A stretch of 64,000 bases of DNA from sequence record ON871820. One strand, given 5' to 3'. This document shows, one piece after another, positions 2,179 to 3,678 of this stretch (position 1 is the stretch's first letter; every line of letters starts with the position of its first letter). Source of the stretch: Escherichia phage vB_Eco-B1.1. The notes under the pieces are model-generated. The model was given only the letters and a program-made list of their open reading frames with translations, was not told the origin of the DNA and searched no databases. The translations under genes and the position numbers were made by a program.

Positions 2179-2394
2179 ATGTTTAAGAAATTAATCCAAA
2201 AATTACTGGGCACGGAAATGGTTGAAGTTACTTATCGTGTGACTGATGTCTCTCCGCTCACTGAAGACCATTTAGAGCCATATATTATGACAATTAAAAT
2301 GCTTAAATATGATGGCGGATTATCTGTTGAAGACCGTCTGCCATGTTACGGTCATTGGGCTGATATTGAAATTATAAGTATTAAAGATGTCTGA
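2179..2394 (+). CDS. hypothetical early protein (71 aa)
   Basis: ORF in series with flanking early genes. Confidence 0.4.
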   Translation: MFKKLIQKLLGTEMVEVTYRVTDVSPLTEDHLEPYIMTIKMLKYDGGLSVEDRLPCYGHWADIEIISIKDV

Positions 2395-2845
2395 GTTAGA
2401 GATAAGAAGCAATTTTAAATGGCCATCATGTGCATTAAGTAATTTTGCCCAATGGCCTTTCGTTATGGATGGTATTCAATTTGGAGGTCTCGAAGGATTC
2501 CTCCAAGGGTGTAAGGTGAAAAATGTTGAACAACAACGTCGTATATTTGGGTTATCCGGGCGCACCGCCCAACAAGCTGGACGAGCTTATGCTAGAGCTC
2601 AAGACCGTGGGACCCTCTTCTGGCTTGGAGTTCCGTTTTCAAGATACTCTCCAGCGTGGAAAGAATTATACACAAATGCATATTTTGAAGCAGCGTTCCA
2701 AAACAAGGGCTTTCGCGATGCATTACAAGCCTCGAAAGGAAAAGTTTTGAAGCACAGCATGGCTAGTGGTCTAACAAAAGATGATACAATACTAACCGAA
2801 GCTGAATTTATTGATGTGTTAAACCTATTAAGAGACTCTCTATGA
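2387..2845 (+). CDS. NADAR (YbiA-like, DUF1768) domain protein, putative ADP-ribose-processing enzyme
   Basis: LSNFAQWPFVMDG and LEGFLQGCK resemble the FSNFAAWPIKVDG and SEHYFQAQK motifs of E. coli YbiA as recalled from memory. Confidence 0.6.
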   Translation: MSELEIRSNFKWPSCALSNFAQWPFVMDGIQFGGLEGFLQGCKVKNVEQQRRIFGLSGRTAQQAGRAYARAQDRGTLFWLGVPFSRYSPAWKELYTNAYFEAAFQNKGFRDALQASKGKVLKHSMASGLTKDDTILTEAEFIDVLNLLRDSL

Positions 2846-3678
2846 AGCCTACTATTTTAACTGATATTGATGGAGTATGTTTAAGCTGGCAATCAGGTCT
2901 TCCTTATTTTGCTCAGAAATATAATCTTCCGTTAGAACATATTTTAAAAATGATCCAAGATGAGAAATTTATTTCTCCAGGTAAACTCTTTAATTGTGAT
3001 GAAGAACTTGGTGTCAAGTTAATTGAAAAATACAATCGATCAGATTTTATTCGTTACTTGTCTCCATATAAAGATGCCCTGTGTGTAATTAACAAATTAA
3101 AAGAAGATTATAATTTTGTAGCTGTTACAGCATTGGGTGATTCTATTGACGCTCTGTTGAATCGTCAATTTAATTTGAATGCTCTTTTTCCTGGTGCCTT
3201 CTCAGAAGTAATGATGTGTGGTCATGATTCTTCAAAAGAAGAGTTGTTTAAAAAGGCAAAAGAGAAATATAACGTAATTTGTTATATTGACGATCTCGCT
3301 CATCACTGCGATCATGCGAGTGAAATATTAAATGTTCCTGTTTATTGGATGGCTCGAGGAGAGCGTGACAATATTCCAAAAACTGCTCAGCGAGTTTATA
3401 CATGGAATGATGTAGAAAATAAGCTTTTTTCGCCGAAGGAAAATAAAGAAAGTTTTGATCGTGAAAAAGCTATAAAAGATGCAATCGAGAAGATGATTAA
3501 AAACGATTCTTTTCCTTGGAACACTACCTGGAGAACTCCTGGATTTAATCCTTATAATCTATATCATCCATATCAGACGCATCCGTTTCAGTCATGGAAC
3601 TATATTAAACCCGGTGGCATAGAGTATTTGTATAATAGACCTACTTGTGGTGATAATATTTTCCAAGGAGCATTCTAA
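2842..3678 (+). CDS. HAD-superfamily hydrolase, possible 5'(3')-nucleotidase-like phosphatase (278 aa)
   Basis: N-terminal ILTDIDGV (HAD motif I DxDG[VT]), VAVTA (motif II-like), VICYIDD (motif IV DD). Confidence 0.5.
   Translation: MKPTILTDIDGVCLSWQSGLPYFAQKYNLPLEHILKMIQDEKFISPGKLFNCDEELGVKLIEKYNRSDFIRYLSPYKDALCVINKLKEDYNFVAVTALGDSIDALLNRQFNLNALFPGAFSEVMMCGHDSSKEELFKKAKEKYNVICYIDDLAHHCDHASEILNVPVYWMARGERDNIPKTAQRVYTWNDVENKLFSPKENKESFDREKAIKDAIEKMIKNDSFPWNTTWRTPGFNPYNLYHPYQTHPFQSWNYIKPGGIEYLYNRPTCGDNIFQGAF

Follow-up and report, generated by a model that had tools for sequence, protein, structure and literature searches.

An AdfN-type NADAR gene and an adjacent NT5C-like HAD phosphatase gene in the T4-like Escherichia phage vB_Eco-B1.1: probably two independent functions

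The 64,000-nucleotide stretch of Escherichia phage vB_Eco-B1.1 analysed here (sequence record ON871820; hereafter the window) carries two neighbouring early T4-like genes, 30.3 and 30.2, which very probably encode two independent proteins, AdfN and an NT5C-like HAD phosphatase, and do not constitute a two-gene module. Judged by its sequence, its conserved residues and its predicted fold, gp30.3 of this phage would be an AdfN-type enzyme, named after T4 gp30.3 (anti-DarT factor NADAR; Johannesman et al. Nat Commun 2025), the ortholog characterised in PMC11825919 and PMC11125620. An earlier note on this DNA had proposed that the phage uses a NADAR protein to reverse DarT-type DNA ADP-ribosylation. 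This is correct but already known: bioinformatic work had predicted the role years before, and the proof for T4 gp30.3 came in 2024–2025, so that the window adds only another near-identical allele. The note had further suggested that the adjacent gene may encode a partner nucleotidase, an idea that fared less well, and the earlier interpretation as a whole is partly supported. The gp30.2 family is catalytically intact and nucleotidase-like, and has no reported function.

Organization of the region

The whole window is T4-like (Tequatrovirus) genome sequence, with about 97% identity to Tequatrovirus genomes, and its genes follow the order rIII, 30.9 to 30.1, 30, alt. In comparison with T4, gene 30.5 is absent here and the alt genes are two, both full-length. 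The two ORFs singled out in the earlier note are present as described, and so are the peptides quoted from them, namely CALSNFAQWPFVMDG and LEGFLQGCK in the first and TDIDGVC and VICYIDDL in the second. Its description of the surroundings holds as well, since both genes lie upstream of the ligase gene and share the region with two Alt ADP-ribosyltransferase genes. The genes concerned are as follows.

2387..2845, plus strand: gene 30.3 (adfN), predicted NADAR-superfamily DNA ADP-ribosylglycohydrolase, 152 aa (PF08010, T4 identity, AF2/Foldseek)
2523..2750, plus strand: 30.3′, 75-aa ORF nested within 30.3 and read in its +1 frame, annotated in T4 (PF11097, E = 8.5e-48; context)
2842..3678, plus strand: gene 30.2, predicted HAD-superfamily phosphatase with C1 helical cap and disordered C-terminal tail, 278 aa (motifs, fold, NT5C affinity)
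3944..5407, plus strand: gene 30, DNA ligase (PF01068), with the gp45-binding loop GLDFLF at aa 230–235 (motif scan; Shi et al. 2018, PMC6212786; context)
5642..9799, plus strand: two tandem Alt-type ADP-ribosyltransferase genes, 5642–7738 and 7742–9799 (both PF03496, E = 1e-37 and 2.5e-20; context)

The two Alt proteins share 40% identity with each other, and the 30.3′ frame is open in close relatives only. The stop codon of 30.4 and the start codon of 30.3 overlap by 8 nt, the 30.3 stop and the 30.2 start are combined in ATGA, and the 30.2 stop and the 30.1 start in TAATG. A scan for sigma-70 promoters did not rise above shuffled expectation.

Gene 30.3 and its NADAR-type product

The product of gene 30.3 is identical to T4 gp30.3 at 146 of 152 residues (96%), has the same length and, as in T4, is encoded between 30.4 and 30.2. 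None of the six substitutions relative to the T4 protein (K11R, R59L, T60A, A67S, F104I and M125I) falls at an invariant family position, and the C-terminal 27 residues are identical. In Pfam, the protein matched its own family, PF08010 (Phage_30_3; E = 3.6e-69), whereas the NADAR profile PF08719, to which the earlier note had looked for confirmation, gave no direct match at E ≤ 1. The best NCBIfam entry, TIGR02464 (riboflavin N-glycosidase NADAR domain), stayed below threshold (E = 0.14), PF08010 and PF08719 occurred together in a single one of 110 gp30.3 homologs, and a single-sequence search against PDB sequences returned only noise. A profile of the gp30.3 family had one significant match among solved structures, E. 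coli YbiA (E = 7.7e-4). The AlphaFold (AF2) model (pLDDT 93.8, pTM 0.89) led to the same superfamily: the top three Foldseek matches in the PDB, and the only ones with a probability of at least 0.99, were the NADAR proteins YbiA (2b3w), that of Geobacter lovleyi (8bat) and that of Phytophthora (8bau).

S18, N19, F20, F25, E36, G37, F38, Q40 and K43 are invariant in an alignment of 49 gp30.3 sequences, as is H123, so the predicted catalytic residues of the NADAR assignment survive proper alignment. The following elements are of particular relevance.

2492..2515, plus strand: codons E36 to K43 (EGFLQGCK), containing the catalytic Glu and Lys; invariant in 49 homologs, aligned to YbiA SEHYFQAQK
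2753..2755, plus strand: codon of H123, predicted catalytic residue of the phage type, adjoining the final beta-strand (E120–122 in the model); invariant in 49 homologs
2798..2842, plus strand: C-terminal helix, aa 138–152 (model helix 138–151); identical to T4

The NADAR identity proposed for this ORF is thus borne out by the link from the family profile to YbiA, by the fold and by the retention of E36, K43 and H123. Judging by the family alignments, the motifs quoted from both proteins are not chance matches, because key residues within them are invariant among the 49 gp30.3 and 47 gp30.2 sequences.

Anti-DarTG1 function and the substrate of gp30.3

The counter-defence role against DarT that the earlier note put forward has already been established by experiment with the T4 protein, to which gp30.3 of this phage is 96% identical. 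On this model, the host DarT1 toxin would ADP-ribosylate guanine in phage DNA and replication would be blocked; AdfN would cut the N-glycosidic bond that joins ADP-ribose to the base, and the DNA restored in this way would permit phage growth on DarTG1 hosts. In published genetics of T4 gp30.3, AdfN alone suffices for RB69 to form plaques on such hosts, and deletion of adfN turns T4-GT7 sensitive to DarTG1. Likewise, insertions in 30.3 were lost in a T4 transposon screen under DarTG1 (log2FC −7.25, adjusted p 0). The E36A and K43A substitutions impair T4 AdfN, allowing partial rescue only, and E36A served as the inactive control in vitro. The RB69 allele, which ends 15 residues early, is defective; the C-terminal helix, reported to be needed for full AdfN activity, is intact in the window. 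According to the literature, gp30.3 proteins carry His in place of the Glu of YbiA or the Asp of BC4488-type NADARs.

Alternatively, the main cellular substrate of gp30.3 might be a soluble ADP-ribose derivative, either an immune signal or an intermediate of NAD salvage, and not ADP-ribosylated DNA. Such a role was proposed on bioinformatic grounds before any biochemistry was available (Iyer et al.), and it would agree both with the location of a 30.3 homolog next to PRPP synthetase and NadV genes in Aeromonas phage AS-sw and with the failure of AdfN(T4) to protect uninfected cells from DarT1. We nevertheless regard it as highly improbable, given that in DNA the purified T4 protein releases ADP-ribose from guanine, and not from thymine (Toxins 2024, PMC11125620), that growth on hosts carrying DarTG1 specifically requires 30.3, and that the thymine-modifying DarTG2 is unaffected by T4 AdfN. 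An additional activity of gp30.3 towards soluble substrates is nonetheless conceivable.

Gene 30.2 and its kinship with NT5C nucleotidases

The 30.2 product is 97% identical to the T4 protein. All four HAD catalytic motifs are intact, and D8, D10, G11, K132, D150 and D151 are invariant across an alignment of 47 gp30.2 sequences.

2863..2877, plus strand: HAD motif I, D8-I-D10-G-V12 (nucleophile and general acid/base Asp); D8 and D10 invariant in 47 close and 127 distant members
3127–3129, plus strand: HAD motif II, T96; at least 90% conserved (47-sequence alignment)
3235–3237, plus strand: HAD motif III, K132; invariant in the 47 and in the 127 distant members
3289..3294, plus strand: HAD motif IV, D150-D151; both invariant in the 47, D151 conserved to at least 90% among the 127 distant members

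In the AF2 model, the Rossmannoid core is predicted at high confidence and is accompanied by a cap module whose five helices separate strand 1 from motif II. The top Foldseek match was the nucleotidase cdN (2jao, E = 1.6e-8), and the family profile also reached cdN (E = 0.011), its only sequence-profile link to any solved structure. The Phe that follows motif I in cdN (DGVLADF) is aligned with W16, which is conserved to at least 90%, whereas R108 and N111 are invariant residues specific to the gp30.2 family. The NT5C family PF06941 was matched by 7 of the 47 close and 45 of the 127 distant relatives (counted at E-value cut-offs of E ≤ 1 and E ≤ 0.01). The gp30.2 of the window itself had no Pfam match at E ≤ 1 and no HAD or NT5C match in Pfam or NCBIfam; of the profiles by which the earlier note would have the two proteins identified, neither the NADAR nor the HAD one matched directly, and it was the phage family PF08010 that did. 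A single-sequence search of gp30.2 against PDB sequences gave just noise, and Pfam revealed no informative fused domain in long or multidomain relatives (P0260, P0318, P0212, P0251 and others). The family is widespread, with about 1,400 representative clusters; a search for literature on the T4 gene 30.2 product found nothing relevant.

Motifs, fold and NT5C affinity concur in the HAD assignment that had been made for the 278-aa ORF, and the nearest relatives of gp30.2 are the NT5C 5′(3′)-deoxyribonucleotidases. The protein would accordingly be expected to act as a Mg2+-dependent HAD phosphomonoesterase with a C1 cap. In view of the NT5C kinship, we infer that its substrate is most likely a small molecule resembling a nucleotide.

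Relationship between 30.3 and 30.2

If gp30.2 were a dedicated partner of the NADAR protein, it might process released ADP-ribose or ADP-ribosylated nucleotides, or it might supply the T-even factor for AdfN. The ATGA overlap, which implies co-transcription and possibly translational coupling of the two genes, and the lack of any terminator-like site between them would suit such a partnership. So would the finding that AdfN(T4) is fully functional only in T-even infections: T4 AdfN does not neutralise DarT1 outside them, and a further T-even factor is suspected by the authors of that work. The genetics point the other way. In the T4 transposon data, 30.2 was neutral under DarTG1 (log2FC −0.12, p 0.61, 71 sites) while 30.3 insertions were eliminated, and the only other depleted genes were 30.4 and 30.5, which lie upstream of 30.3, as expected of polar effects. 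On K-12, 30.2 is non-essential (72 of 72 sites hit), and it is neutral in M9; thus, the published T4 transposon screens considered here (K-12 reference, DarTG1, LB versus M9) show no 30.2 phenotype. Masking by a redundant gene was considered, but a search covering the window together with T4 1–50 kb and 122–169 kb yielded no second gp30.2- or NT5C-like gene. gp30.2 is therefore not required for the anti-DarTG1 function of AdfN, which argues that gene 30.2 is not the missing T-even factor.

Gene neighbourhoods lead to a similar view. Roughly 1,500 phage genomes carry gp30.3. The order 30.3 to 30.2 is retained in Tevenvirinae and in the Twarogvirinae of Acinetobacter, yet a gp30.2/NT5C-type gene is immediately adjacent at only 15 of 82 gp30.3 loci; at 55 of the 82 there is no such HAD within 6 kb, and the 82 loci comprise 61 different neighbour arrangements. 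Direct NADAR/NT5C-type neighbours occur in at least three arrangements: besides the T4 type, in Vibrio phage ValKK3 the 30.3 homolog overlaps with another, canonical NT5C gene, and at a further locus (L080) 30.3 is preceded, at a distance of 4 nt, by an NT5C-like gene. A looser functional link is therefore conceivable; by our own rough estimate, however, the adjacency arose independently about three times where chance alone would give roughly one. A jackhmmer search of 80 metagenomic loci found no further copies of the ValKK3 NT5C gene. In KVP40-like phages, the 30.2 ortholog adjoins the ligase gene and 30.3 lies elsewhere, while in Krischvirus it is 30.3 that abuts the ligase gene, without 30.2. 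That 30.3 and 30.2 lie side by side is best explained by inherited synteny around the ligase gene, and not by a two-gene module. With 30.2 neutral under DarTG1 and the adjacency restricted to certain lineages, the proposal of a partner nucleotidase gained no support, and we consider a dedicated partnership very unlikely.

The C-terminal tail of gp30.2

The last 80 residues of gp30.2 are disordered, with low confidence in the AF2 model except for a short helix at residues 261–264. The tail contains a single conserved island.

3607..3645, plus strand: PGGIEYLYNRPT (aa 256–268), candidate short linear interaction motif in the disordered tail (column identity)

Mean column identity is 0.75 within the island, matching the conservation of the catalytic core, as against 0.36–0.38 in its flanks. 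The tail peptide KPGGIEYLYNRPT is a candidate gp45-binding peptide, and it could be envisaged that IEYLY (compare LDFLF) tethers gp30.2 to the sliding clamp, where the phosphatase would act at replication forks or nicks together with the adjacent DNA ligase and might, for instance, remove obstructing phosphates or nearby nucleotides. IEYLY differs only conservatively from LDFL[FYL], a motif that our scan located in gp43, gp55, gp33 and the ligase loop. Structural work has shown this motif to dock as a short helix into the hydrophobic pocket of gp45 (Shi et al. 2018, PMC6212786); the Kd of the ligase loop is 10.7 µM. The modelled helix at 261–264 and the persistence of the 30.2 ortholog beside the ligase gene even where 30.3 has been relocated would be in keeping with this idea. 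In a pattern scan with shuffles, however, the relaxed LDFL[FYL] pattern matched seven times in about 51,000 residues, where 2.1 matches were expected. The three matches beyond the four known binders include an internal b-gt site and an ORF ending in LDFLLG (20145–20393) that is antisense to a homing endonuclease gene and uvsW and therefore spurious. On this basis, the IEYLY match taken alone was downgraded to chance level. Furthermore, homologs vary at the fifth position of IEYLY, known gp45 binders do not share the conserved G-T-G and Q-P-T flanks, and about 45% of the family lacks the tail, other tails finishing in different motifs. Capped HADs normally act on small molecules and not on DNA ends, which likewise counts against a role of gp30.2 at DNA ends. 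Tethering to the clamp thus appears unlikely. Even taken together, recruitment to the gp45 replisome hub through G-I-E-Y-L-x-x-Q-P-T and joint action with the NADAR protein on ADP-ribosylated nucleotides make a rather doubtful pair of options; if true, either would add an accessory activity to the replication/repair or the anti-ADP-ribosylation toolkit of T4.

Comparison with known systems

YbiA (2b3w; PF08719, NADAR/DUF1768) is the best structural match of gp30.3 (E = 1.2e-4, TM 0.67, 18% identity). The two proteins align along the SNF...WP...DG...E..FQ..K motif and differ at the last strand, where YbiA has Glu and gp30.3 has His. The DarG1-type NADAR of G. lovleyi and the Phytophthora NADAR share the fold (Foldseek probability 0.99, TM 0.55–0.61) at 15–17% identity, and have the catalytic Glu and Lys and the chemistry of guanine de-ADP-ribosylation in common with AdfN; DarT-linked NADARs have Asp where the phage gp30.3 clade has His. 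Unlike DarG1, gp30.3 is an orphan without a linked toxin, and the T4 protein cannot replace DarG1 in uninfected cells.

As regards gp30.2, the HAD core, the helical C1 cap and the DxDGV motif with its aromatic residue are common to the NT5C enzymes cdN and mdN (2jao, 2i7d, 1q92; PF06941). Identity to these enzymes is 14–17%; they lack the 80-residue disordered tail, and the invariance of R108 and N111 is a trait of the gp30.2 family. The alignment with the 3′-phosphatase domain of T4 polynucleotide kinase (PseT, 1ltq/5uj0) spans only 126–131 residues. That domain acts on nucleic-acid ends and has no C1 cap, unlike gp30.2, whose five-helix cap argues for a small-molecule substrate.

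Identity and function of gp30.3

Both reading frames singled out by the earlier note are present exactly where it had placed them, together with the peptides quoted from them, and the first contains a further frame:

2387-2845, + strand: gene 30.3 (adfN, for anti-DarT factor NADAR), 152 aa
2842-3678, + strand: gene 30.2, product gp30.2, HAD-type, 278 aa
2523-2750, + strand: 30.3', an ORF of 75 aa within 30.3, +1 frame; PF11097 (DUF2883), E 8.5e-48

The link of gp30.3 to NADAR is solid. A Pfam search returned PF08010 (Phage_30_3; E 3.6e-69) and no direct match to PF08719 (NADAR) at E<=1. 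The earlier note had made its NADAR assignment depend on a PF08719 hit, which, so worded, would have misled, because gp30.3 lacks a direct match and is a NADAR protein all the same. With a profile of 49 gp30.3 homologs, E. coli YbiA alone among solved structures was significant (E 7.7e-4), and LSNFA..PF..DG....EGFLQ..K of gp30.3 was aligned with FSNFAAWPIKVDG....SEHYFQAQK of YbiA. The confident AlphaFold model (pLDDT 93.8) has NADAR proteins as its top three PDB matches (YbiA, 2b3w; Geobacter lovleyi, 8bat; Phytophthora, 8bau), and PDB matches beyond these were no better than noise. In the alignment of the 49 homologs, E36, K43 and H123 are invariant.

The window protein is of full length and 96% identical to T4 AdfN, the final 27 residues being identical; accordingly, both the NADAR assignment and the proposed role in counter-defence against DarT are correct and already known, having been published for the T4 ortholog. 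Resistance of T-even phages to DarTG1 was mapped to 30.3, hence renamed adfN (Johannesman et al., Nat Commun 2025, PMC11825919). In that work, purified AdfN removed ADP-ribose from DarT1-modified DNA, the E36A, K43A and C-terminally truncated variants had lowered activity in vivo, E36A protein was the catalytically inactive control of the in vitro assay, and RB69 was DarTG1-sensitive because a frameshift ends its protein 15 residues early. The T4 phage NADAR (gp30.3) de-ADP-ribosylates guanine but not thymine in vitro, and gp30.3 proteins carry His in place of the last-strand Glu or Asp (PMC11125620).

The internal ORF corresponds to the 30.3' annotated in T4. Of 14 close relatives, 13 keep its frame open (76 codons), and the typical open stretch among 69 distant homologs is 45 codons. 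It may be a by-product of the conservation of 30.3 rather than a gene.

gp30.2 and its C-terminal tail

Window gp30.2 matched no Pfam or NCBIfam model, HAD profiles included; its only PHROG matches were phrog_420 (function unknown) and, weakly, a polynucleotide-kinase PHROG. The HAD assignment nevertheless holds, with motifs, fold and family affinity in agreement. All four HAD motifs are kept: D8, D10, G11, K132, D150 and D151 are invariant in 47 homologs, with T96 at >=90%; across a set of 127 far more distant representatives, D8, D10, R108 and K132 are invariant, with V12, W16, N111 and D151 at >=90%. AlphaFold models residues 1-195 as a core of high confidence (pLDDT above 90), in which five helices between strand 1 and motif II form a C1 cap. 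Foldseek gave 108 matches at E<=1e-3, the 50 listed being all HAD-fold, with mouse cytosolic 5'(3')-deoxyribonucleotidase the best; the same enzyme was the only solved relative found by the family sequence profile (E 0.011), in whose alignment W16 faces the deoxyribonucleotidase Phe that follows motif I. The deoxyribonucleotidase family NT5C (PF06941) was matched by 45 of the 127 distant relatives, above every other family; gp30.2 itself lies outside PF06941 proper. gp30.2 is an NT5C-like HAD phosphatase whose catalytic motifs are intact; the superfamily is known, this member of it uncharacterised. Motifs, fold and NT5C affinity together point to a putative Mg2+-dependent phosphatase, with a nucleotide-like small molecule as candidate substrate. 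Our literature search brought up no publication about gp30.2.

Residues 196-278 are predicted to be disordered and vary greatly among homologs, about 45% of the family lacking this tail entirely. Within the T4/Klebsiella-phage group, however, one tail island, PGGIEYLYNRPT (consensus G-[IL]-E-[YW]-[LYW]-x-x-[QR]-P-[TK]), equals the catalytic core in conservation (mean column identity 0.75 versus 0.36-0.38 in the flanks). Its IEYLY is a conservative variant of LDFL[FYL], which binds the T4 sliding clamp gp45 as a short helix (PMC6212786) and which a motif scan located at the C-termini of T4 gp43, gp55 and gp33 and in a loop of the window ligase:

3944-5407, + strand: DNA ligase, with the internal GLDFLF loop, a known gp45 binder, at aa 230-235 (nt ~4631-4648)

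Conservation and resemblance are weakly suggestive of a clamp-binding tail, but the relaxed pattern gave three matches in addition to the four known binders, with about two to be expected by chance; among the three is a spurious ORF (20145-20393), antisense and with LDFLLG at its end. Moreover, the conserved flanks of IEYLY are unlike those of known clamp binders. That IEYLY is a gp45-binding motif is a hypothesis of low probability.

Are 30.3 and 30.2 partners?

The earlier note had suggested that the HAD protein might be a partner nucleotidase of the NADAR enzyme. T4 transposon data (HIDEN-SEQ, Extended Data Table 6, sheet Data S6) bear on this.

T4 transposon insertions, control vs DarTG1 (bioRxiv 10.1101/2025.11.20.689424)
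30.5 (upstream): log2FC -3.00, not significant
30.4 (upstream): log2FC -1.79, adjusted p 0.014
30.3: log2FC -7.25, adjusted p 0
30.2 (downstream, 71 sites): log2FC -0.12, p 0.61

On DarTG1 hosts, insertions in 30.3 are lost and those in 30.2 are neutral. The simplest explanation for the depletion of 30.4 and 30.5 is polarity on 30.3, which would predict it, although 30.4 may itself contribute. On K-12, T4 30.2 is non-essential, and it is neutral in M9 as well; a search of the window and of T4 1-50 kb and 122-169 kb gave no second gp30.2-like gene by which a phenotype might be masked.

Nor is the adjacency conserved. A gp30.2/NT5C-type gene immediately adjoins the gp30.3 homolog in 15 of 82 loci, lies within 0.5-1.2 kb in nine and farther away in three; within 6 kb of the remaining 55 there is no such gene. 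Tevenvirinae and Acinetobacter Twarogvirinae retain the pair with ligase after it. In Krischvirus, 30.3 abuts ligase and 30.2 is missing; in Aeromonas phage 44RR2.8t, tRNA genes surround 30.3; in Aeromonas phage AS-sw (3001-6447 of the locus) it adjoins PRPP synthetase and NadV (nicotinamide phosphoribosyltransferase), an NAD-salvage rather than a ligase/alt context. KVP40-like Vibrio phages have a true 30.2 ortholog beside ligase and 30.3 elsewhere. One observation favours a 30.3-NT5C link: in Vibrio phage ValKK3 (3007-3961 of the locus) the relocated 30.3 overlaps a different, canonical NT5C gene (PF06941, E 1.5e-12), and in metagenomic locus L080 (5503-6483) an NT5C-like gene lies 4 nt upstream of 30.3, both in lineages unrelated to the T4 arrangement and with a gene that is not a gp30.2 ortholog. 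With 61 distinct neighbour arrangements in the 82 loci, about three independent NADAR/NT5C adjacencies were observed against roughly one expected by chance on our own rough estimate; this recurrence is not significant.

Taken together, the data say that 30.3 and 30.2 are not partners, or at least not obligately. The partnership, the only new element of the earlier reading, is contradicted by existing genetic data; that reading is thus partly supported, its biology accurate but already published. AdfN(T4) does not work outside T-even infection (Johannesman et al.); since the evidence speaks against partnership, 30.2 is unlikely to be the reason.

Genomic context and comparison with T4

The window comes from a Tequatrovirus (T4-like), and its bases 1-8000 share ~97% identity with Shigella phage vB_SsoM_113 and with hundreds of T4 relatives. 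A GIY-YIG (SegE-like) homing endonuclease gene (20216-20833, - strand) directly downstream of uvsW (helicase; 18705-20213) occurs in some relatives only, 158 of 516 matching records covering >=80% of the 1-kb query.

No spacers separate 30.3 and 30.2 from their neighbours: 30.4 extends 8 nt into 30.3, ATGA is common to 30.3 and 30.2, and TAATG to 30.2 and 30.1. The top + strand promoter-like site (1382-1411) is immediately upstream of 30.7, and no + strand terminator-like site occurs between the two listed here:

974-995, + strand: terminator-like site upstream of 30.8
5590-5609, + strand: terminator-like site after alt.1
5642-7738 and 7742-9799, + strand: two tandem, full-length paralogous genes for Alt-type ADP-ribosyltransferases, both PF03496

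In T4-like phages, phage NADARs had previously been noted to occur together with early ART genes. The order rIII, 30.9, 30.8, 30.7, 30.6, 30.4, 30.3, 30.2, 30.1, 30 (ligase), alt.1, alt_1, alt_2 is that of T4, which is read on the opposite strand. The window differs in lacking 30.5 (198 bp, between 30.6 and 30.4 in T4), 30.6 ending at 2174 and 30.4 starting at 2179, and in its two full-length alt genes (40% mutual identity), where T4 has one alt gene together with alt.-1 and alt.-2, remnants of an old duplication.
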